The translations under genes and the position numbers were made by a program. DNA of 63,405 nucleotides, counting the filler, from Chrysochromulina tobinii (taxonomy: Eukaryota): assembly GCA_001275005.1 (NCBI GenBank). It is 7 parts of 7 records of this genome, joined end to end, with 100 filler letters (N's around TTAATTAATTAA, not from the genome) between each part and the next. Parts side by side here need not be neighbours in the genome. Positions count along the whole stretch, not along the records: positions 1 to 9,144 come from JWZX01000386.1; 6 more parts are not named here. One strand, written 5' to 3'. Numbering within the stretch: the first letter of the stretch is position 1; every line of letters begins with the position of its first letter. A model generated the notes under the pieces. That model worked only from the letters and a program-made list of their open reading frames with translations. It had not been told where the DNA came from and did not search any database. This document shows, one piece after another, positions 1 to 13,064 of this stretch.

Positions 1-1
1 G

Positions 2-3000
2 GAGGAGGAGGAGGAGGAGGAGGAGGAGGGCGAGGAGGGCGAGGACGAGGATGTGGACGAGGAGGAGGAGGAGGGGGAGAGCGAGGCGGAGGCCACCAAG
101 GAAGACGCGATCAACGATGAGCCGCCAGTCCGAGGGGCGCGGCGGACCTCGAGCTGGCATCGTCGCCGGCGGGAGCTTGAGCGCTTCGAGCAGCAGCTGC
201 GCGAGCAGATGGCGCATCAGATGGATCGCATCGAGCAGATGCGTCAGAGGACGCCCACGCTCCAGACGCGCGAGGAGCAGCTCGAGCAGCAGCAAGAGCT
301 CGAGCGCTTCCAAGCCCAGATGGTCGAGAAGATTAGCCAGATGTCGCAGATGCGCCTCGCGCTCGACGCCGAGGCCAGCCAGATGGCGCAGATGCGCTTC
401 ACACTCGACGCCGAGGCGTCGCTCAAGGGCCTGTGGACGCCGGGGCCCTCCACACCCGGCCAGCCGAAGCCCAGCGCGCAGCCAACGCCTGATCCCTCTC
501 CTCCCTCGGCCACGAGCCTCCCTGAAACGTCCAGCGAGGTGGGCGCGCTCTACTGCGCCCAACCGCCGCTCGAGACGGCGCTCTACTGGGCCCAACCGCC
601 GCTCGAGACGGCGCTCTACTGGGCTCAACCGCCGCTCAAGTCTGCGCCACCGTCGTTGCCGCCCTCAGCGCCCCAATCGCTCCCAATGTCTTCGGCTGTC
701 TCGCCCATCCCCACAGAGCCCATGCACTCGACTACGTACGCGGCATCGATGGTCTCGGTGCCGGTGCCGTTGACATCCGCACGAGGTGTGAACGCTGCTC
801 GAGGTGTGAAGGTCCCGGTGCCGGTGCCGTTGACATCCGCGTACGTGGCAGCGCCCGTGAAGACACCTGCATCAGCGTCAGTCGCCTCACACGCGCGAGT
901 GATGGCCACAGCCACTCCAGTCGCTGTGCCCTCCTCGGCATCGGCATGCATCGCTCAACTCTCCTCGGCATCGGCATGCATCGCTCAACCCTCCTCGGCA
1001 TCGGCATGCATCGCTCAACCCTCCTCGGCATCGGCATGCATCGCTCAACCCTCCTCGGCATCGGCATGCATCGCTCAACCCTCCTCGGCATCGGCATGCA
1101 CGCCACGGGCAGCGACGCCGTCAGCAGTGCCGGCAGTACGGGTCGTCGAGGCTCAACCTGCGACATCGAGATCGACATCGAGATCGACATCGAGATCGAC
1201 ATCGACATTGGAGCCTCCGCACCCCCCGCCGAACAATCGCGTGCATCATCCTAATATGGCAGCTGAGCCTCCGCGGATGCACCCTAACGAGAGGATGCAC
1301 CCTGACGAGAGGAGGCACCCTAGCGCGCGGGCACAGGCGCCGTCGCGGGCACAGCCTGAGGCGGCGACGCGAGCACAGGCGCAGGCTGTAACGCGAGCAC
1401 CTGCTGCCGGGCAGGCGCAGGCTGGAACGCGAGCACCTGCTGCTAGGCAGGCGCAGACTGGAACGCTGCCCCGTCTCATGAAGACCACCCGAGCGACCCC
1501 ACCAGCGCCTATCGTACCGGATGGCGCTGTGCTGGGCGCTCGGTCGCTGCCCGCCTCGGCCCCGCCGCTGGCGCAGGCGCGGCTGGCGCCGACACTCGAG
1601 CAGGACCCTAATATGGCAAGTGCGGCACTGGAGCAGGACCCTACTATGGCAAGTGCGGCACTGGAGCAGGACCCTAATATGGCAAGTGCGGCACTGGAGC
1701 AAGCTCCGCCCGTGGAGCCAGCAGCCTCGCTGTCCTTCGAGCCGCAACCGCCCGAACTGCAGCCACCGCAATCATCGCAGCCCGAACTGCAGCCATCGCA
1801 ATCATCGCAGCCCGAACTGCAGCCATCGCAATCATCGCAGCCACCGCAATCATCGCACTCCGAACTGCAATCATCGCAATCATCGCACATCGAGGCCGAG
1901 ATCGATGGTCGCACTTGCCATTTTAGGGACAGCGCGGCTGAGATCAACGGTCGCACTGAAACGGCTGAGGACGTGCCCGACACAGCGCCCGACTTCTTCA
2001 CAGACCGGTCTCCTCATTCACAGCCCGAGGAGACCTCGCAAGCGCAGAGCTGCATCGTCGCGCACAGAGTCACTCAGTCGTCGGCCACGCCACGTGCCAG
2101 GTCGACCAGCACGCCACGTGCCAGGTCGACCAGCACGCCACGTGGCAGGTCAACCAGCACGCCACTTGGCAGGTCAACCAGCACGCCACGTGCCAGGTGG
2201 ACCAGCACGCCACCGTCAGCCAAGCAGCCGAAGCCCCTGGGCGCTGTCTCGGGCGCGCCGCTGCCGATCGCCTCGACCCCGGCGCCCTTACCGCCGGCAG
2301 CCGTCGTCAAGACCACACCTGGATGGCTTGCAGGCTGGCCCTCCGCCGTGCTTGCGGACGCTCAACACAACGCTCCCGCTGCGCCGCCTCCGACGGCGGA
2401 GCGTTGTGTTGAGCTGCCACCAACGCATCCGCCGAAGCCCGAGTTGCAGAGCCCTGCACTGAGCGCGCCTGCCCCGGCCAGGCTGACGGCGAAGGTCCTC
2501 AAGGTGCACCCGAGCCCCGCGGACTGGCGCAGCCCCGCGCTGGTGACTCATCCGAGCACGGGCGCTGTGGTGGGCGCTCTCTCGGGCGCTGTCCCGGGCG
2601 CTCTCTCGGGCGCTGTCCCGGGCGCTCTCTCGGGCGCTGTCCCGGGCGCGGCCCCACCCCCGCCACGGCCGAGAGCGACTCCACCGCCCGCTGGCCCGCC
2701 ACATACGCTGCACACGATGGCGCCCTCGGGGTGTGAAGGCCAGCCACATAGGTGTGAAGGCCCGCCACATACGCTGCACACGATGGCCGTGACGGTACCA
2801 GAGGGCGTCGCAGGCGGCACCGCTGTGAATGTGAATCATGGTGTGAATGGCATCCGCACGCCCTCTGGGCTCATCATTAACATGGAAGCGGTGGTGCCTT
2901 CGGGCCTCTGCGCTGGCCAGATCTTCGAGATCCAACTGCCGCCGATGCTCTTGCCGGAGCCCCCAGCGGCCTGTGGGGAGAGCCATGAACTACGTGCAGC

Positions 3001-6000
3001 CTGTGGGGAGAGCCATGAACTACGTGCGGCCTGTGGGGAGAGCCATGAACTACGGGCGGCCTGTGGGGAGAGCCATGAACTACGGGCGGCATGGGCGCAC
3101 ACGCCGGCGGCACTAGAGGTGCTGCCTGAGGATTCGGCTGCCCTCGGGATTTCGTGCCCTACGCTTGGCGCCAGTGTGAACGTCAGTGTGAATGGCGCCA
3201 TCCAGACACACCCAGCCGAGCTCATGCAGAACGAAGTGCCCTCGCCCCTCAACATGTCATCGCCCCTCCACTTCTCAACGCCGCTGGCGGAGCATCCCTC
3301 GCCGGACGAACTCGACGACCCGCGCACACAGACAGCCAGCATGGCGCCCGGCATGGCGCTCGGCATGGCGCCCGGCATGGCGCCCGAGGGCGCTCATGTA
3401 GGTTGGCCGGCCTTCACACCTCGAGCAGCGTTCACACCTCGAGCAGCGTTTGACCAGAGCCCGTTATTGAGCGCCGTGATGAGCGCCGATGGCGAGCCAC
3501 CCTTGCCGCTGGGTCCGTCGGCTGCTCTCGGCTTCGATTCACAGCGTCGATTCACAGCTCTCGGCTTGGATTCACAGCGTCGATTCACAGCTCTCGGCTT
3601 GGCCCATCGCGCATCGGATCGCCCATCAGAGGTGCTTGGGCCTTCATCGGCCCCGGGACCAGGTCCAGGACCTGTCCCGGTCGTGCCAGCGATGCCGGGC
3701 AGCGCAATGAAACCTTCTGTGCACGTGTCGGACGCAGCAGACGCAGCGCTCGATCGCGAGAACCATGCTCCCGTGCAGCTCGAGCATTCTCCCGTGCAGC
3801 TCGAGCATTCTCCCGTGCAGCTCGAGCATTCTCCCGTGCAGCTCGAGCATTCTCCCGTGCAGCTCGAGCATTCTCCCGTGCAGCTCGAGCATTCTCCCAT
3901 GCAGCTCGAGCCTGGTAGCCTGACGCCGCTCGATGCCGAGAGCTTGGTCGCTTGGTCCGAGAGCCTGGTACTCTCGCCCCCCTCGCCATCAGTGCCATCG
4001 CACCACCTCGGGGACGCAGCGCGGCCCTTGGCGGCGGAGGCGGCTTCGGACGGGACGGCCCTTGCAGCTTTCGAGGCGCTCGCGACGGCGCCCTCGGGGT
4101 GTGAAGGCCAGCCAACCCTTGCAGCTTTCGCGGCGCTCGCGACGGCGCTGGCCACTGCCCCGCTCGCACCGGGCGCCATGGCACCACCGCCGCCAACACC
4201 GTCACAACCACCCTCTCGGCCACAGCTGGTGCCACCAACACAGCCGCCACCGCCGCCGCCATCTCGCGTGCTGCTGCCCCCGGCGGACAAGGCTGCTATT
4301 GAGGATGCGCCGATGGACATAACAAGCTTTCAGCCCACGCCAGTGCAGCCGCCGAAAGGGGCTGCCCAGTACAGCGCCCAGGAGCCGCCCACGCCACTGA
4401 CCTCCCTGGCAGGCTCCATGCCGCGCTACTTGACCTTGAAGCCACGCATCACGACACCACGACCGCGCAGTCTCGTTGAGCCTTGGGCGTCGTCTTGGGC
4501 AGGCGGGGGCGGCGGCCCGCCCGTTGAGTCTTGGGGCGGTGGTGGCACGCCCTTTGAGTCTCGGGGGGCAGGCAGCGGTGGGGGTGGCAGTGTTGTTGGA
4601 GGCACGCCTCGAGCTGCCGCTGCCGCTGCTGCTGCCATCCTGCGGCTTCGTCGCCAGCATGTCGGCGCATCACTCCGCCCCCCACCATCGACCCCCGTCG
4701 CGCCCAATACAGCGCGCTACTCGGCTCGAGTGCGCGCTGCGGTCGCATCCCAAGCAACCTCCCAGGCACCCTCCCGGGCACCCCTCGCGCTCCATGGGAC
4801 CGTGGCGGCCGCTCCGGGGCTGCCGCAATGGGGTCACGCCGCGCATGCGGCAGCCTCGCACGCGGCGAGCGCTGTCTCGGGCGCCCCTCTGGCAGCGGCG
4901 GGCGTCGTCTTGGGCGCCCCTCAGGCAGCCTCACACGCGTCGAGCGCTGTCTCGGGCGCCCCTCAGGCAGCGGCGGGCGCACAAACGGTGCTGCCACGAG
5001 CCGCGCCACCGACCACACCGAGGCCCACACAGCTGCCTGCAAAGCTGCACGTGCCGATCCCCGCACACGCTCCCACTCGGACCGACCACGAGACTGCCTC
5101 GGTGGCTGTGAATGTGAATGTGAATGAGACTGCTCCTGCCACCGCTTCCGCCGCCTCGGCTGCCACTACGGCCGCCACCTCAGCCGCGACGGCCGCCGCT
5201 AAGGCGGCTGATGCGGCCGCGGCTTCTGCCGCACGCGCCGCCGCCGCTGCCGAGTCCACGGCGGTCGCGGTGGCCGCCGCCGCCGCCAGCTGCCAACAGA
5301 TGGCGAGCGCGGCCGCAGAGGCGGCAGCCGCTCCACCGCCCAAGGCGAAGCGAGCACGGCGGGTTCGCAAGGCGGTGCGCCCTGATAAGGCAAGTCACCC
5401 GTGGTACGATAGCGAGCACTCACAGATGGCGGCGCGGCGGGTCGCCGCGGCACGCGCCGGACGCCCGCAACGCAGCGATTGCATGCTCGATCCCGTGTGG
5501 CCGATCGGCATGGAACCACCCGACGGCTACGAGGCTCTGTACGGCCCTTGGGTGCCAGCAGGCAAGGCTGCTGCACCCAGGGGCGCTCGGCCTTCGGGTA
5601 CGGTCCGTCAGGCAGGCGCAGGGGGGCGATGGACACGGCGCTTGGTCCACGGACTCGCCTACCACTCAGCACCGACGGCGTCGCGTCCCAATGCAGACGC
5701 GACGAGCTCGCTCCCCCTCCCCGCTGCTGTCAACAGCGCTCACGCTTTCGCACCCCTCCACGGCTGCGGCTCCATGCCATTCGCACCCCCTCTCGCAGAG
5801 CCCGGAGCGCTGGCGCTGGGCGCGTCGATTGTCGAGGTAGGTGTGAGCTCAGCGGCCTTTGCGATGGTAGCGGAGCTCGTCGGACGTCAACCGCCCTTTG
5901 CGCCCAGCAGTGGCGTTGCCGTCTCGGTGCTGCGCGTGCTCCAGTGCTGCAGCCACCTGCCCAGCCAGCTGCTCCCTGCGCAGCCGCTCAGCCGCGCGCC

Positions 6001-6463
6001 ACTCCCCACATGGGACGCTGCCGGTGGGTCGCCGAGCGCCGTGGCGGGCGCCCCCCGACTCGCCTTCGTACTTGGCGACGATCTCGGCGCTATCTCCGAC
6101 TTTGTGCGCTCGGGGCTGCGTCTGCTGCACGTCGCTGCACGCCCGTCGCGCACCGAGGGTCTCGTGCTCGCCCACCAGCTCGACGTGCGAAGCTGTTGGC
6201 GCGGCGGTGGCCTCGGCGTCGGCCTAGGCGGCGCCGGCGCTGGTGGCGGGGATGGCCAGTGGGGGCGTGGGGGCGAGAGCAGCGCGAACGCCGCGGATGC
6301 CGCCACCGGGGCCACGCCCGCTCTGAGCGTCTGGCGGCTCGTGCTCGCTATTTGCTGGCCACCGACCGCAGGCCAGGCGAGCCCGGTCAGCGTGGCACAG
6401 GCGGTCCCAGCATTCATCGTCGACTACGCCGTTGAGAAAAGGAGCGCCCAGCTCGTGTCGTGA
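2..6463 (+). CDS. Large low-complexity Pro/Ala/Ser-rich protein (5'-partial) with many in-frame tandem repeats and a C-terminal degenerate PARP-catalytic-like region
   Basis: Stop-free frame of >2100 codons, open to the window start (poly-Glu). N-terminal coiled-coil. Internal repeats include SSASACIAQP x6, PVQLEHS x6 and ACGESHELRA x4. The C-terminal ~200 aa follow the order of PARP catalytic-domain motifs. Some in-frame repeats could be introns. Confidence 0.7.
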   Translation, partial: EEEEEEEEEGEEGEDEDVDEEEEEGESEAEATKEDAINDEPPVRGARRTSSWHRRRRELERFEQQLREQMAHQMDRIEQMRQRTPTLQTREEQLEQQQELERFQAQMVEKISQMSQMRLALDAEASQMAQMRFTLDAEASLKGLWTPGPSTPGQPKPSAQPTPDPSPPSATSLPETSSEVGALYCAQPPLETALYWAQPPLETALYWAQPPLKSAPPSLPPSAPQSLPMSSAVSPIPTEPMHSTTYAASMVSVPVPLTSARGVNAARGVKVPVPVPLTSAYVAAPVKTPASASVASHARVMATATPVAVPSSASACIAQLSSASACIAQPSSASACIAQPSSASACIAQPSSASACIAQPSSASACTPRAATPSAVPAVRVVEAQPATSRSTSRSTSRSTSTLEPPHPPPNNRVHHPNMAAEPPRMHPNERMHPDERRHPSARAQAPSRAQPEAATRAQAQAVTRAPAAGQAQAGTRAPAARQAQTGTLPRLMKTTRATPPAPIVPDGAVLGARSLPASAPPLAQARLAPTLEQDPNMASAALEQDPTMASAALEQDPNMASAALEQAPPVEPAASLSFEPQPPELQPPQSSQPELQPSQSSQPELQPSQSSQPPQSSHSELQSSQSSHIEAEIDGRTCHFRDSAAEINGRTETAEDVPDTAPDFFTDRSPHSQPEETSQAQSCIVAHRVTQSSATPRARSTSTPRARSTSTPRGRSTSTPLGRSTSTPRARWTSTPPSAKQPKPLGAVSGAPLPIASTPAPLPPAAVVKTTPGWLAGWPSAVLADAQHNAPAAPPPTAERCVELPPTHPPKPELQSPALSAPAPARLTAKVLKVHPSPADWRSPALVTHPSTGAVVGALSGAVPGALSGAVPGALSGAVPGAAPPPPRPRATPPPAGPPHTLHTMAPSGCEGQPHRCEGPPHTLHTMAVTVPEGVAGGTAVNVNHGVNGIRTPSGLIINMEAVVPSGLCAGQIFEIQLPPMLLPEPPAACGESHELRAACGESHELRAACGESHELRAACGESHELRAAWAHTPAALEVLPEDSAALGISCPTLGASVNVSVNGAIQTHPAELMQNEVPSPLNMSSPLHFSTPLAEHPSPDELDDPRTQTASMAPGMALGMAPGMAPEGAHVGWPAFTPRAAFTPRAAFDQSPLLSAVMSADGEPPLPLGPSAALGFDSQRRFTALGLDSQRRFTALGLAHRASDRPSEVLGPSSAPGPGPGPVPVVPAMPGSAMKPSVHVSDAADAALDRENHAPVQLEHSPVQLEHSPVQLEHSPVQLEHSPVQLEHSPVQLEHSPMQLEPGSLTPLDAESLVAWSESLVLSPPSPSVPSHHLGDAARPLAAEAASDGTALAAFEALATAPSGCEGQPTLAAFAALATALATAPLAPGAMAPPPPTPSQPPSRPQLVPPTQPPPPPPSRVLLPPADKAAIEDAPMDITSFQPTPVQPPKGAAQYSAQEPPTPLTSLAGSMPRYLTLKPRITTPRPRSLVEPWASSWAGGGGGPPVESWGGGGTPFESRGAGSGGGGSVVGGTPRAAAAAAAAILRLRRQHVGASLRPPPSTPVAPNTARYSARVRAAVASQATSQAPSRAPLALHGTVAAAPGLPQWGHAAHAAASHAASAVSGAPLAAAGVVLGAPQAASHASSAVSGAPQAAAGAQTVLPRAAPPTTPRPTQLPAKLHVPIPAHAPTRTDHETASVAVNVNVNETAPATASAASAATTAATSAATAAAKAADAAAASAARAAAAAESTAVAVAAAAASCQQMASAAAEAAAAPPPKAKRARRVRKAVRPDKASHPWYDSEHSQMAARRVAAARAGRPQRSDCMLDPVWPIGMEPPDGYEALYGPWVPAGKAAAPRGARPSGTVRQAGAGGRWTRRLVHGLAYHSAPTASRPNADATSSLPLPAAVNSAHAFAPLHGCGSMPFAPPLAEPGALALGASIVEVGVSSAAFAMVAELVGRQPPFAPSSGVAVSVLRVLQCCSHLPSQLLPAQPLSRAPLPTWDAAGGSPSAVAGAPRLAFVLGDDLGAISDFVRSGLRLLHVAARPSRTEGLVLAHQLDVRSCWRGGGLGVGLGGAGAGGGDGQWGRGGESSANAADAATGATPALSVWRLVLAICWPPTAGQASPVSVAQAVPAFIVDYAVEKRSAQLVS

Positions 6464-6944
6464 GCGCTCGCCGGCGGTTGAATGGCCGATTCTATCTTGG
6501 GAACGATCTCTTCGAGATCACCTCGAGATCGGATTCGGTGCCGAGACCCGAGACGCGAGAGGAGCAACACAGCGTATGAAGCAGGACGAAAACCTATGGA
6601 TCTATAGACGATGCCATAGTCGCGGTAGTGTGCGCTATAGCGGCCAGAGAGGCAGACTGAGGGAGAGGCCAGAGCCGCGGCTCTCAATTGAGTTCGCAAC
6701 ACGCAGTCCGCGAGCCTAGCTCCTACCGCACGCCGTGCGTACCGCTCTTGTGTCTTGAATCTTAACTTAGAATATATTCGTCTCTGAATCGTGTCACACG
6801 TAATGAATGATAACACATGCTATCCGACGAAGACCCCTGCTAAATAATCCATGCAATAGCGAACATGGGTCCACATTACACTGTGTTGGCAGATATTGAC
6901 CATGTGCTGGGACGGAAGGGGGCGCGCTACCGCTAGTACCGCGC

Positions 6945-8006
6945 TCAGAACACCATGCCGCCACCTCGGGCAGCCAGTCGCTCGCGTTGCCTGTCGAGGC
7001 GGCGCGCCGAAAGCATGCTCGCCTTGGAGCCGATCACCGGCACGTGAGACGAGCGGCCGGCGTCCGAGAGGCGCGCGGCGCGTCGCACCGCCATCTGCAG
7101 CTCCCTGAACTTGGGCTTCAGACGGTTGTACTCGGCCACCGCCTCCTTAAGCAGAGGCCCACCGACGCCGCGCAGCTCCTGCATGCGGCGCTCGGCCTCG
7201 CGGTACTGATGCTCGATCTCGTCGAGGGCCGCCTCGGCCTCTGCCAGCCCTCCTTCAGCTCCCGTGGCTATGTGCTCCTCGTCCGCCTCTACGGGCTTCA
7301 TCGCCACACGCCTCGCGGTCTGCGTTCTCGCGGTGGGCGAGGAAGTGGGCGACTGCTGCTGCTGCTGCTGATCGTGCTGCCGCGACGAGGGCAATGGCTG
7401 CTGCTGCATCCTCGCGGAGGGCGAAGACGGCTGCTGCTGCTGCTGCGGCGGCGGCGGCATCACGGGGGCGACGCCCCGCAATGTCGGCTTCGAGGGCGAA
7501 CGCGGCTTGGTGACTGGAGAGGGCGCCATGGTGGGCGCCTTGGAAGCGGGAGGACTGCCGAGGAGGCCGCCGAGGAGGTTATTGAGCATCGCAGCTGCCT
7601 CGGGCGGAGCCTGACCCGACTCAACCTGCTCCACGAGCTCTTCCAGCTGCTTGGCGAGGGCAGCGTCCTTGGCGGCCCACTCCTTCTGCATCGCTTGCTC
7701 CTTGGCCCGCTTTTCTGCTTCATGTTCCGAGCGCTTTTTGGCCGCAAGCTCCCTGCGCTGCCTTTCCTCTGCCTGCTGCGCCGCCACCCGTTCGGCCTCC
7801 TTGCGTGCCGCCTCTTCCGCGGCCCTCTGCACCTCCTCCTCCTGTTTCACCTCCTCGAGCCGTGACCAATTCTTCTTGGCTTGCATTCGAGCCATGACGG
7901 CCTCGAGCTCCGCATCGACTTGCGCGACCATGTGCTGCCGCTCACGCTGCACGCTCCGCACCTTCTGCTCCACCTGCTGTGGGTTGAGCCCGGACGGCCT
8001 CTGCAT
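6945..8006 (-). CDS. Coiled-coil hypothetical protein
   Basis: ORF 6945-8114 with an E/K/R/A-rich helical region, a Gln/Pro linker and a C-terminal helical segment. The ATG at 8006 (MQRPSG) was chosen as the likely start; start uncertain. Confidence 0.7.
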   Translation of the reverse strand: MQRPSGLNPQQVEQKVRSVQRERQHMVAQVDAELEAVMARMQAKKNWSRLEEVKQEEEVQRAAEEAARKEAERVAAQQAEERQRRELAAKKRSEHEAEKRAKEQAMQKEWAAKDAALAKQLEELVEQVESGQAPPEAAAMLNNLLGGLLGSPPASKAPTMAPSPVTKPRSPSKPTLRGVAPVMPPPPQQQQQPSSPSARMQQQPLPSSRQHDQQQQQQSPTSSPTARTQTARRVAMKPVEADEEHIATGAEGGLAEAEAALDEIEHQYREAERRMQELRGVGGPLLKEAVAEYNRLKPKFRELQMAVRRAARLSDAGRSSHVPVIGSKASMLSARRLDRQRERLAARGGGMVF

Positions 8007-8210
8007 GATGTCCGACGGACGTGCGGCCCAAAACTCTTCGAATGCGACCGTGAGCGCCCATTTCGGCGCTTTCGAAGCCGAACGCATGCACGCTCTGCGT
8101 GCCAAGCTACCCAATCATGTCCGTGACTCGTCGGAAAGACGCGCGATCGGCCGTGAGGACAACCCACCGTGAGCGCGGACGCGACGGGGGCGAAGGGTCT
8201 TTTGCGCATC

Positions 8211-8889
8211 GTCGATGACGGTGTGTGAAGAACATCGTCATCGACGCGATTTGTCGATGACGGTGTTCTTCACACACCGTCATCGACACGATTTCTCGAT
8301 GACGGTCTTGAGTGGAGACCTTCATCGACGTTAACGTCGATGACGGTCTGGGCCAGAAACCATCAACGACGTTTTGTCGATGACGGTCTTCAGAAGAGAC
8401 CGTCATCGACTTTTTCGTCGATGACGGTCTCCAACTGACACCGTCATCGACTTTTTCGTCGATGACGGTATTTGAGCCACACCGTCATCGACGTTTTGTC
8501 GATGACGGTGTCAGTTGGAGACAGTCATTGACAAAAAGTCGATGACGGTATTTGAGCCACACCGTCATCGACGTTAAAGTAAAGTCGATGACGGTGTCGG
8601 TTGAAAACCGTCAACGACGAAAATCTCGATGACGGTTTCTAAGCCACACCGTCATCGACGAATTTCGTCGATGACGGTTTTGATCAGGACCTGTCATCGA
8701 CACAGTTTGTCGATGACGGGGGCTGACTCACACTGTCATCGACGTTTTTGTCGATGACGGTTTAAGTCAAAGACCGTCATCGAGAAAGTTTGTCGATGAC
8801 GGGGTGGTCTTTCACCCGTCATCGACACAGGATGTCGATGACGGGAAATGACGGGTTTCGTCGGCATGTTCTCGGAGACCGTCATCGAT
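8211..8889. repeat. Periodic inverted-repeat array: GTCGATGACGG / CCGTCATCGAC alternating, ~41-bp period, 16 units with variable spacers
   Basis: Forward copies at 8211, 8253, 8295, 8336, 8376, 8417, 8458, 8498, 8538, 8584, 8625, 8667, 8709, 8750, 8792 and 8834. Each is followed by a variable ~13-nt spacer (usually T-N11-A), the reverse-complement copy, and a mostly 5-8 nt AT-rich spacer. Confidence 0.95.
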
Positions 8890-9038
8890 CGCAAAAGTTT
8901 TCATGTCGCAACGACCCCAACACATTGACAGGGTTGACGTTGTTCAAGCACTCTCTGATGAGGCCACGCAGCTGTTCGGGGGCGGGCCGCCGGCCTTCAG
9001 GCGGCGGCGGGAGGGCAAGCACGCCCTTGAGCCCTGGC

Positions 9039-9144
9039 CTCGACAACTCGACAGGAAACTCGACAGGAAACTCGACAGGAACTCGACAGCTCCTTGACAG
9101 GATACTCGACAGCTACTCGACAGGATAGCTCGACAGCTACTCGA
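9039..9144. repeat. CTCGACAG(GAAA/CTA) short tandem repeat running into the contig end; possible transposon subterminal repeat
   Basis: About ten CTCGAC(A) copies at ~10-12 nt spacing. Confidence 0.8.
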
Positions 9145-9244
9145 NNNNNNNNNNNNNNNNNNNNNNNNNNNNNNNNNNNNNNNNNNNNTTAATTAATTAA
9201 NNNNNNNNNNNNNNNNNNNNNNNNNNNNNNNNNNNNNNNNNNNN
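9145..9244. other. Artificial contig-join spacer
   Basis: 44 N + TTAATTAATTAA (stops in all six frames) + 44 N. Confidence 0.99.
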
Positions 9245-9685
9245 GATATAACGGTATATCATCTTTTTTTCTTCTGCTTTTAATATCATGTGCTATCATG
9301 TGCCATCTCATCTCACGTTCTTGATGATATAGGGACCTGATACCGACACATGATATGATAATGATATATTATGATATAACGCCCAATTCGAGCCTCGACC
9401 TCCACGTCCCCAACCCTACATGATATCACATGATATCACATGATATCATGTCCCCCGACCACAGCCCAAGCCCCCACAACACAAACTTCGATATCACGAG
9501 ATATCATGGCATATCATGAATCATGATACATCATGATATATGACATGATACACGAATACGAAAACACAGATATGAGCACAAGATATCGATGATATGGAGA
9601 TGATATATTGATGCTATGGAAATGGCGTGGGCCTGGCTTCGTCGCATGCTCTGCGGCAGGCATAGGATATCAGTAGAATCTCATC

Positions 9686-10845
9686 TTACTTCCTTGACGC
9701 CTGGCGGACGCGCTTGGCAGCGGGGAGCGCCTCCTCAGTCAGGTCCCGGTCAGCCACAAGAGGAAGAGGCTTTGTATGTGGGCTTCTGCAATCCATGCAA
9801 TAATTGCATTCTTCCTTGTCGGCCAGCTGCTTCTTTAAGAACTCGGTGCAGTACTTGATGTAGCAGAAGTGATGAAAGAGAGCAGGGCGTGGGCCTTGCC
9901 TTGCCTTGCATTTGTCTCCTGTACATATCATCACATATCATCACATATCATCACATATCATTCAATCTCATGTCATACATATCATATATCATACCGATAT
10001 CACTCATTCGGTATGATCGATATATCATTATTATCTCATATCATCACAAATCATTCAGTATCATGAATATCACATCATATCATCTTACCGCTCTTGCACG
10101 CGCGATGCCCAGTTGGGCCGAGGTTGCATTCAAAGGCCGGTTGAGCAAGACCAGACTTGAAGGTGTGGAAGAAGCAGTACATATTCGCCTCAGCGGGCGG
10201 TCCCTCGGCCTCTGGCACGTTCTCCACTCCGTCTGGATCTGTGGATGGTGCCCCTGGCGCTGGCGCTGGCGCGGGCGCTGGCGCGGACGCTGGCGCAGAC
10301 GCTGGCGCGGGCGCTGGCGCTGGCGCGGGCGCGGGCGAGGGCGCCCGTGCGGCAGCGGGCGAGGGCGCCCGTGCGGCAGCGGGCGAGGGCGCCCGTGCGG
10401 CAGCGGGCGAGGGCGCCCGTGGATTGTCGGTTGCCACTCCCTTGCGTGTCGGGGCCGCGTGTTCTTCGGGCGGGGCCGTGCCTGCCGGCGCCTTGCCCGG
10501 CGCCTTGCGGTTTGAAGCAACCGCGGGTGCAGGCGCGGGCCTGCCCGCCGCTGCCTTGCCGCTCGCCGCTGCCTTGCGGTTTGAAATAACCGCGGGCGCA
10601 GGCGCGCGCGCGGATACGAGCTTTGAAGTGGAGCTACTTGCTTGGTTCTTGTCCTGGACCATAGGGAGTGCGTGTAGGAAAGGAGGACGTCATTCAGTAT
10701 CATGATATAGGTATATCATTATGTATCCTCATATATCATTCAGTATCATGAAATCGGTATATCATTGTATATCCTCATATATCATCAGTAAATCATTAAT
10801 TCATCAACCTCACCTTCTTCTTGGGATCTTTGATGTTGCGATCTC
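9686..10845 (-). CDS. MULE accessory gene: Ala/Pro-rich linker plus Cys/His (PHD-like) zinc finger; 5'-truncated
   Basis: Exons 10845-10814, 10653-10089 and 9918-9686 splice in frame at GT-AG sites (DRNIKDPKKK|DKNQ...ACKSG|DKCK...FHHFC...YCMDC). Basic NLS-like C-terminus AKRVRQASRK. Confidence 0.7.
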
Positions 10846-10851
10846 CTGTGT

Positions 10852-13064
10852 GCTGACTTTGGCGAGGACGAGGATGGAGGAGACCTCATCGAAGACATGG
10901 ATATTGCAGGCATCGAGGGTGCACCTCGATTGTCGCAGATTCAGGACTACGTCAAGAGACAAAAGAAGAAAGGTAATGATATGATATGATATACAAGGAT
11001 ATGATATGATATGATATGATATGATACAACATGCTTGCAGGTGGTCTGTATGGCCCGATCAACGACGTTCACGATCTGGTCAGCGTCGCTGAGGACATGA
11101 AGCTGCCTGAAACTCTGGAAGAAGTGATTCCTCGCAAGGCATACATGGTTCCCACGAACATGGAGTTGCTCTCCCGAGTTCAGGCCGTGTGCTTCACGGG
11201 GCGCACACAGATCAAGTGGCTTTTGCAACTGGCGGCGACGGACTTCAAGTACACCATGCACATCGATGGAGTTCACAAGCTGCACCACGGGGAGTGGATT
11301 CTCGTCACCATTGGACCGCATGCTCTCAACCGGGCAGATGACGGAACGGTACGCAATACGAACAAACATGATATTCATTGATGTGCAATGATATTTCATG
11401 ATATTGTTGATATGATATGATTTTATCAGGTGACGCATTCATATCGTCCGTGCATCTACATGTTCTGCAAGCAAGGCGAGAGCGTGGATGGCACTAGGCT
11501 GATTTGCTCCGCCTGCGATCAAGTCAGTATGCTGTATGCTGGGAAGCCCCTTTGTCCGGCTGCAGTCAACATGGATTGCAGCGATGCCTTCCGCGCCGGG
11601 GTGCTCATGGTTTGGCCAGACTCACGTGCGTGCTGCACTAAGTTGGTGTGCTACCCTGTGCTTCTGATGGATGGCTACCTGCTGCCCCACACAGGTCCCA
11701 TCACGTGCTGGCCTCACATCAATAACAAGGTCCTACGCGGAGAATACATGAGGAAGGTGCGTACATCGAGTGATATCTTGCGATACAACATGATATGATT
11801 GATATATATATGATGCATATATATGTGATATTGATATCTCTATATCTCAATTGATATCATGGTATCTCATGTGCATTCATGATTATATCGTTGCATATCA
11901 CAGACATCCAAGTTCTTCGAAACGTTCCTCGGGATGCTCAAGTCCATCCACATGGCAAACTCAGCACCCATGAGTGAGATGTTGATCAAGCTGGCAGGAG
12001 TTTCAATGGACAAGCACATCGCTGCTGAACCAAAGCTTCTTACCTTCTGGAACACATACTGCTGCGCCCCTTGGCAGTGCTGGTCACTTGGCCACGGCAA
12101 TGGCATTCCCAGTCAGATTGCCAACAACCAGCCCATTGAATCCTGGCACAAATGGGGTGTCAAGCAATTCTTGGGAAAGTTAGGGCTCAAGAAGTCCACA
12201 GCGATTGTGATCCACAAGACGCTGCCACTGATCATGAGACGTGACGGTGGGCATATATCAGCATATCATAAGATATCACAATATATCATACCATATCATT
12301 GTATATCTGACTATATGTGACGAATCTCGCCCACAGAATCGCGCATGCCTGCCATACTTCGCTTGGATGAGCTACCTATTAAGTGGATTGCTAAGGCTCA
12401 ATACAAGGCTGCTCAGGCGATTGCATTCAATGCTGACGAGCTAATCTACACAGATGCAGATGCCTCATCAGCGTACGTGCTGACCAGTGCTGGGCTCCAA
12501 ACTTACAAGAAGATTACACAGGGGCTCGTCAAGAGGTAAGTATCATTTGATATCTCTATATCTCATGCTATATCATACCTTGAATGACAATATCATCCTT
12601 ATATCATGTCATATCACAGATACAAGTCGTGCATCGACGGGAAAGCGCCCAAGGGCGCTGAAAAGGACTTTGAGAAGCTGGCTGGCATCTGCGAAGCTCT
12701 TGTCTGCGTCAAGAGGATCCAGCCTGGGGAGGAATCCTCCGTGATCCGCTGCAAGGCGAATCCATTCAACCTCGTATGTGAGTGCAAGGGCAGCCGAAAG
12801 ATTGGCATTTGCGCTCACATCCTTGCAGTCACGCACTGCTGGGTCAAGGAAGGGAACCTAGACGAGCAGAGGCGGCTTGCCTTTTGCAATTTACGGCTCA
12901 TGACCCAAGCCCTGACGACGAAGAAGGGTGCGAAGTGGATGAAAGGCAAAGGGGCGACAAAAGTACTCCACTATCTGTACAAGGAGGTTCCCAAGAAGGT
13001 TACCAGCTCAGACAGCTCAGACGATGAGGAAGATGTGAGCTTCATCCCTCGCCTCAAGTGGTGA
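10852..13064 (+). CDS. MULE (Mutator-like) DDE transposase with C-terminal SWIM zinc finger; 7 exons, N-terminus apparently missing
   Basis: Exons 10852-10972, 11041-11348, 11430-11625, 11695-11756, 11904-12246, 12337-12535 and 12620-13064 join in frame at GT-AG sites. Motifs: HIDGVHK (D1), NMDCSDAF (D2), TCWPH (CxxH), NNQPIESWH (E) and SWIM CECKGSRKIGICAHILAV. Confidence 0.9.

Follow-up and report, generated by a model that had tools for sequence, protein, structure and literature searches.

A palindromic repeat array in Chrysochromulina tobinii is one inverted end of a non-autonomous foldback DNA transposon, probably a MULE

Mutator-like elements (MULEs) are defined by long terminal inverted repeats (TIRs), often running to hundreds of bp, and by target-site duplications (TSDs) of 8–11 bp (PMC6446971). 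Foldback MULEs with repeat-filled TIRs have already been described. In Muta1, a type 2 foldback MULE from Aedes aegypti, the TIR spans 145 bp and consists of a terminal motif and nine direct 12-bp subterminal repeats with short linkers; the element makes 8–9-bp TSDs and has non-autonomous derivatives (PMC5499845, PMC5225508). The subterminal repeats are reported to be bound by multiple transposase complexes and to be required for donor cleavage, and excision rises with their number (PMC5499845). The Muta1 transposase (504 aa, with FLYWCH) has a D-D-CxxH-W-E signature, with D283 and H307 separated by 24 aa and W401 and E419 by 18 aa (PMC5499845, PMC5225508). Tm1, a Mutator/foldback element from Meloidogyne, is described as having composite TIRs with internal repeats and ~93% TIR–TIR identity, 9-bp TSDs, non-autonomous members and nested insertions; its units are direct 13–15-bp tandem repeats of variable number, and its termini are asymmetric (PMC3169594). 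Other MULE transposases combine an N-terminal WRKY-GCM1 zinc finger with a C-terminal SWIM (PMC1702500). The element described here belongs beside these systems, and its geometry differs from that of Muta1 and Tm1 as they are presented in these accounts.

The window that we analysed is a stretch of 63,405 nucleotides from C. tobinii (GenBank assembly GCA_001275005.1), of which positions 1–9,144 come from JWZX01000386.1. An initial annotation had placed 16 palindromic units at 8211–8889, on a strict ~41-bp period and with variable 11-nt cores. The array is real and lies at that location, with some corrections to its layout. A pattern search of the window for GTCGATGACGG-N13-CCGTCATCGAC, allowing up to 3 mismatches, returned 15 regular units (8211–8826), and none of 100 shuffled windows gave any match to the same pattern. 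The sixteenth unit (8834–8889) is broken, with 34 nt separating its arms, compared to 13 in the regular units. Spacing is near-regular rather than strict (40–46 bp; mean 41.5 bp, or 3.95 turns at 10.5 bp), and the linkers between units measure 5–11 nt, a single one of them reaching 11 nt. Core length is kept and the centre varies, but position 1 (T in 13/15 units), position 3 (T, 14/15), position 11 (A, 13/15) and position 13 (A, 13/15) are conserved, so that free variation is limited to the central 7 nt and the palindrome effectively extends to ~14 bp per arm. As had been noted, units U1/U2 and U6/U8 have cores that are exactly reverse-complementary, the cores of U7/U9 form an exact direct pair, and the arms are able to pair with either neighbour (fold z = -27 for the array DNA). 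Single units fold, as DNA, into hairpins of -5.7 to -15.7 kcal/mol. The features of the locus are as follows; L-numbers denote metagenome loci introduced below.

6945–8006, minus strand: host gene of 353 aa, given for context; the protein is recorded in NCBI and EukProt.
8180–8188, plus strand: outer copy of the 9-bp TSD (CGCGACGGG), abutting the terminus; 8/9 match to the flank of the end in L014, L024, L025 and L050.
8189–8210, plus strand: terminal motif (begins GGCGAAGGGTCTTTT), common to 24 distinct ends.
8189–8827, plus strand: long TIR, on the 3' side of the putative transposase remnant; aligned with the opposite TIR from the complete L015 copy, it is 91.9% identical across 639 bp.
8189–8416, plus strand: outer five units, probably derived from a paralogous copy via the assembler (differences to L023 versus L035/L047; unitig depth).
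8211–8826, no strand: 15 palindromic units (11-bp arm, 13-nt core, inverted arm, 5–11-nt linker), likely transposase binding sites (pattern search; arm versus core divergence).
8834–8889, no strand: degenerate sixteenth unit, at the inner TIR boundary (arm spacing).
8882–9027, minus strand: 3' end of a truncated putative transposase ORF (C-terminal part of a 187-aa zinc-finger fragment); open frame, profile positions 272–314, with 8890–9027 100% identical to L015.
9028–9144, plus strand: start of an unrelated high-copy repeat of CTCGACAG units that interrupts the copy (L035 junction, depth); the contig ends at 9144.

The array forms a ~635-bp TIR, one of two, in a non-autonomous foldback DNA transposon of ~2.17 kb. 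Scanning metagenome contigs with one unit yielded 68 stretches, stored as 62 loci, many of which are redundant assemblies of the same sites. A second, inverted array is found 0.7–1.0 kb away in 18 of the 62 loci. The complete copy in L015 measures 2171 bp, with TIRs of 634 bp that are 94.8% identical, a length in keeping with MULEs, and has CCCACGCCC on both flanks, a perfect 9-bp TSD; across 839 bp, its identity to the window copy is 97.7%. All 24 distinct ends have a 22-bp terminal motif in common, which starts at 8189 in the window, and their outer flanks are unrelated. Ten of the 24 end flanks form five perfect 9-bp pairs, a TSD length within the MULE range of 8–11 bp, and no perfect pairs exist among these flanks at 6, 7, 8, 10 or 11 bp or at offsets of 1–11; in 2000 shuffles of the flanks, the mean was 0.004 pairs and the maximum 1. 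The window flank pairs, with its one mismatch, with an end that bears the opposite arm type. For one of the six paired sites the empty site was recovered, exactly (33/33) in L026 and with 3–4 mismatches in six further loci, inexact matches that arise because the target is itself a repeat. Matching TSDs were present in only one of the three contigs that contain both ends, which counts against the assignment; the two others connect ends that belong to different sites, and in our reading the assembly crossed there from one copy to another by way of the common interior.

Contigs of three DNA runs join other flanks at the terminus, and in the same runs the depth of interior 8903–9013 corresponds to about two window-type copies and one variant (186+100 against a single-copy depth of 84.5, 101+50 against 57.8 and 77+46 against 42.5; the summed depths are rough). 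The copies fall into three subfamilies, A, B and C, which differ in terminus, cores and interior, with interiors ~81–93% identical to that of A, and the number of units per TIR is nearly fixed at 13–16. The element thus has the structure TIR (~635 bp)–interior (~0.9 kb)–TIR, with a fixed terminus, 9-bp TSDs and varied insertion sites, and it is mobile. A foldback-type mobile element had been suspected from the array, and the multiple copies, defined ends, TSDs and empty site bear this out. The array had been supposed to be the entire element, whereas it is one TIR of a pair; the element's real outer end lies at 8189, and the similarity at 8890–8918 that had been taken for the right-hand terminus is internal, in the coding remnant. 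The suggested position just upstream of the 6945–8006 gene is correct, the element ending 183 bp from the ATG. RNA contigs of run X11 cover this neighbouring gene up to 8025; none lies over the array, which is uninformative about expression. We also considered an 8-bp CTTTTGCG match beside unit 16 as an element end and rejected it: the match is internal, and subfamily C has it too, with a terminus that differs at the same bases. It is either an old template-switch footprint or chance.

Some features of individual copies are worth recording. The insertions in L018, L026, L038, L044 and L048 lie within or beside one GC-rich repeat family, which is also the source of the empty site; this family may be a favoured target or a mobile element in its own right. 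Decayed, truncated and one-armed copies occur in L013, L034, L044, L053 and L055, with small internal duplications within units.

Compared with Muta1, the element shares a long TIR built from a terminal motif and subterminal repeats with short linkers, a TSD of similar length and non-autonomous derivatives (PMC5499845, PMC5225508). A TIR made of subterminal repeats able to form secondary structure is what characterizes a type 2 foldback element (PMC5499845), and here the repeats alternate in orientation. The TIR is far longer than the one described for Muta1, and instead of nine direct repeats it has ~30 alternating arms, paired round 13-nt variable cores (PMC5499845, PMC5225508). With Tm1 it has in common the composite TIRs and their high identity, the 9-bp TSD, the non-autonomous members and nested insertion; in contrast to the published description of Tm1, the units are palindromic and nearly fixed in number, and the termini are symmetric (PMC3169594).

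The interior of the L015 copy contains a 187-aa ORF on the minus strand, the 3' end of which corresponds to 8882–9027 of the window. Pfam gave no match for this fragment or for four window ORFs (0/5). A full HMMER scan with the fragment identified 88 relatives at E ≤ 0.001, with the match mostly near the N-terminus; the fragment aligns with the N-terminal ~200 aa of proteins of 950–1160 aa, at 27–42% identity, and a C..NC..C..C..C..H pattern is conserved. Nine relatives are longer than 900 aa, three of which (P0086, P0088 and P0092) were rejected as chance matches, having weak E-values (2e-4–6e-4) and unrelated domains (Ig-like or molybdopterin-binding), and excluded from the motif count. The six others all contain D, D, (C/D)xxH and E, followed by a SWIM-like CxC..CxH, in that order. 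The second D precedes the H by 22–23 aa in five of the six, and a W lies 19–21 aa ahead of the E in five of the six, spacings similar to those of Muta1 (PMC5225508); the Muta1 enzyme differs in its smaller size and its FLYWCH in place of a SWIM-like finger (PMC5499845, PMC5225508). The order of zinc finger, catalytic domain and SWIM matches that of the MULE transposases with WRKY-GCM1 (PMC1702500).

MULE transposases are DDE enzymes with CxxH and W, related to IS256. In the ESM Atlas, the catalytic part of relative P0075 (residues 200–700) has neighbours annotated as MULE (PF10551; member shares of 33%, 77% and 12% in the three best-ranked clusters), as well as SWIM and ZSWIM families. The fragment itself falls near GCM (12% of members) and ALS2CR8 clusters, at low recognition (1938). 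These neighbours and the conserved Cys and His recall the WRKY-GCM1 proteins, but the fragment and catalytic domain have no Pfam match and the fragment model has a pLDDT of 33.6, so that membership of the fragment in that group is a lead only (PMC1702500). Also in favour, the best Foldseek rows for the P0075 model (pLDDT 78) are the Hermes and ISCth4 transposases. Counting against a MULE, Pfam MULE matched none of 25 relatives and SWIM matched once, below the cut-off; the Foldseek E-values are 0.014 or worse, and hAT (Hermes) is level in rank with IS256/Mutator. A PDB sequence search gave one irrelevant row (E 0.84). That the enzyme is probably of the MULE class we infer from homology, at 27–42% identity, to the long relative proteins.

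A profile search detected the catalytic region in none of the 62 loci nor in the window, from which we take the copies seen to be deletion derivatives. Longer close relatives of the fragment were absent among 2095 candidates, and a further profile search for an autonomous partner gave four proteins, none of them named. Contigs of four runs that match the interior at 80% likeness are, among the matches shown, only subfamily variants; freshwater run X17 has no contig on the interior, which is not proof of absence. This part of the gene, for the N-terminal region, is kept in all three subfamilies, and in several records it begins with an ATG in frame; C has an open frame, A lacks 13 bp near the start, and B is frameshifted. 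A single 552-nt RNA contig of run X11 (depth 16.3) covers the subfamily B interior (L015:3815-4191) and represents either transcription or DNA carry-over. Among the relatives, P0026, P0053, P0061, P0071 and P0075 possess a C-terminal PDZ-like region (a weak Pfam PDZ_6 in P0026; Foldseek PDZ rows), and P0053 has a chromodomain; both are uncommon additions to a transposase.

Across the loci, 593 units comprise 57 distinct cores in 11 clusters, which indicates that cores are inherited and mutate rather than being acquired; there is no sign of CRISPR-like spacer acquisition. Reading inwards from the terminus, subfamilies A and C have the core series c+ c- d b- D a- b+ a+ b+ a+ b+ e f g h; the series of subfamily B is c+ d d b- D a- b+ a+ b+ a+ b+ e g h. 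Some arms are without certain units; otherwise order and orientation are constant within a subfamily, which argues against ongoing flipping. The initial annotation had suggested that segments have been flipped. Recombination between U6 and U8 is expected to invert U7, and recombination between U1 and U2 to invert their linker; both inversions are absent from every listed arm, and comparison of the core order among copies revealed no reordering in these arms. Only U3, in some C arms, and one linker that reads GTTTT or AAAAC could represent an inversion in place. U3 is almost its own palindrome, and the call of its orientation hinges on one base. Between subfamilies A and B, the divergence is 0.031 in the arms and 0.160 in the cores, the arms thus changing about five times more slowly. 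Within inward-reading arms the inner positions are more constant than the outermost one, and inward-reading arms have 14 distinct changes versus 27 for outward-reading arms (p = 0.06, on non-independent data), a difference on which we base no claim.

Sites such as loxP and FRT have inverted arms and an asymmetric core, and CRISPR arrays combine a constant repeat with a fixed-length insert. The units share this look, and this look alone, with both systems. It is highly improbable that the array is a site-specific inversion cassette (loxP-, shufflon- or integron-like), in which a recombinase acting on paired arms would flip and reorder segments between matching cores. Such a cassette would explain the inverted arms round an asymmetric 7-nt centre, the inverted matching cores of U1/U2 and U6/U8 and the opposite orientation of U3 in some C arms, but the missing U7 and linker inversions, an order that holds throughout the A and C arms and nearly throughout those of B, and the single base on which the U3 orientation rests all speak against it, as does an interior that encodes no recombinase-like protein. 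Even further from the evidence, and with next to no probability in our view, is a CRISPR- or TIGR-like guide array with acquired spacers processed to small RNAs. Constant repeats with fixed-length variable inserts, each unit able to form a hairpin, would suit such an array; the cores, however, are copies of one another, and copies at different loci share the same core at the same position. Two array patterns found no match in viral contigs, a search of 185,579 prokaryote genomes found no array and one isolated unit, and the complete copy has no Rfam match. The element is also without a Cas-like gene, and its array occurs twice, in mirror image, as the two ends of a TSD-flanked unit. That the foldback element belongs to a DDE superfamily other than MULE (hAT, P/Galileo or CACTA) is very unlikely. 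Hermes as the top Foldseek row, the silence of Pfam MULE and the CxxH and W that hAT and MULE transposases have in common (PMC5225508) would be compatible with it. Against it stand the SWIM-like finger after the E in the long relatives, the Atlas neighbours in MULE, SWIM and ZSWIM families and a domain order known from MULE transposases (PMC1702500). The TSD length of 9 bp differs as well. TSDs of hAT and P elements are 8 bp and those of CACTA elements 2–3 bp long.

A further alternative concerns the role of the units rather than the nature of the element. Template switching is described as homogenizing arms, inverting spacers and yielding mirror-image pairs between inverted arms (PMC8604942). 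In the same transposon, the units could be mostly a by-product, a self-complementary minisatellite expanded and homogenized in the TIR by slippage and template switching, with only the terminal motif and perhaps one unit being of consequence. We regard this as unlikely, although several observations fit: every arm is able to base-pair with the neighbour on either side; the exact mirror symmetry of U1/U2 and U6/U8, centred on a linker or a unit, and the GTTTT/AAAAC linker at one position in different arms are footprints expected of template switching; and Muta1 excision is reported to work with one repeat per end (PMC5499845). However, the 13-nt core length and a 40–42-bp period have been kept across three subfamilies whose interiors are ~81–93% identical and whose cores have diverged by 0.160, and the greater constancy of the inner arm positions is likewise at odds with a by-product.

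We consider it very probable that the array is one of the two inverted ends of a ~2.2-kb, multi-copy transposon without a catalytic domain, likely a foldback MULE that is mobilized, and bound at its arms, by a transposase encoded elsewhere. That the arms are binding sites is suggested by the analogy with Muta1 and by their slow divergence (0.031 versus 0.160). The slow divergence is equally expected from homogenization by template switching, which leaves room for units without such a role. The initial annotation had proposed phased sites for a dimeric transposase or recombinase; by analogy a transposase is the likely binder, and nothing indicates a site-specific recombinase.

In the mechanism that we propose, an autonomous member of the element family would supply the enzyme, and the N-terminal zinc finger of this transposase would recognize the 11–14-bp arm. 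Each TIR would then present ~30 half-sites in alternating orientation on a ~4-turn period, and many transposase molecules could load beside the terminal motif, as in Muta1. The transposase would gather on both TIRs before cutting at the terminal motif, and the element would insert via a 9-bp staggered cut. Cores and linkers would act as spacers whose length is under tighter constraint than their sequence. The direct and inverted copies of cores may have arisen through duplication of units together with either gene conversion or template switching by a polymerase between complementary arms and, once formed, would have been inherited rather than shuffled by an enzyme.

A bolder version of this mechanism, which we hold to be rather improbable, would place the element in a divergent MULE lineage missed by Pfam, with ends that are lattices of ~30 helically phased half-sites, alternating in orientation, for a dimerizing zinc finger. 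The short copies would retain an ORF for this DNA-binding domain alone, and the truncated protein would coat the arrays as a trans-acting repressor of the family. The KP protein of the P element is a model for such a truncated trans-acting repressor. Compatible with a repressor are the part of the ORF kept in A, B and C, the in-frame ATGs, the open frame in C and the RNA contig from the B interior; it is opposed by the 13-bp loss in A, the frameshift in B and the chance that the RNA contig is DNA carry-over.

In the open-access literature we found no haptophyte element of this kind and no head-to-head palindromic subterminal units in a MULE. With this family, a probable foldback MULE is added from a eukaryotic microbe, and its transposase clade is apparently unannotated. 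Its alternating-orientation, four-turn geometry offers a clean substrate for studying how the orientation and phasing of sites affect transposase loading. For genome scans it serves as a warning that repeat-spacer arrays in eukaryote contigs may be transposon ends, and that short-read assemblies mix copies.

The window copy itself appears to be a case of such mixing. Over 8189–8416 it differs at 1 of 228 positions from L023, a paralogous arm of subfamily C, versus 13 of 228 from the arm with the same flank in two other assemblies (L035 and L047), and the inner 412 bp (8417–8828) are identical to L035. With the outer 228 bp closest to one copy and the inner part identical to another, the printed array is probably an assembly mosaic of the two; alternatively, gene conversion may have taken place in the isolate that was sequenced. 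A C-type unitig covering 8296–8418 has approximately twice the single-copy depth, which is explicable by two arms of a single C copy. In the window copy, 138 bp of interior are followed at 9028 by a junction, the same in L035, where the element sequence stops. Beyond it the depth is 5,000–10,700 (summed contigs), versus 42–85 for single-copy DNA, and many different flanks join near 9028. One junction is observed, and a nested insertion is the likely cause of the interruption. The repeat at 9028–9144, with 8-nt CTCGACAG units and 3–5-nt linkers, resembles the direct subterminal repeats of another foldback element.

Contigs are joined in the window by N44-TTAATTAATTAA-N44 linkers, at 9145–9244 and in five more places, and features stop there. 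In the next contig, between 9245 and 13400, lies a second MULE-type transposase gene in pieces (ORFs 11031–11381, 11430–11798, 11934–12320 and 12606–13064), in which D, D/CxxH, E and SWIM-like motifs were recognized by visual inspection. This gene is unmatched by the profile of the array element, and three of its pieces have no Pfam match. AT-rich repeats of the ATGATAT type separate its ORFs and may be introns.
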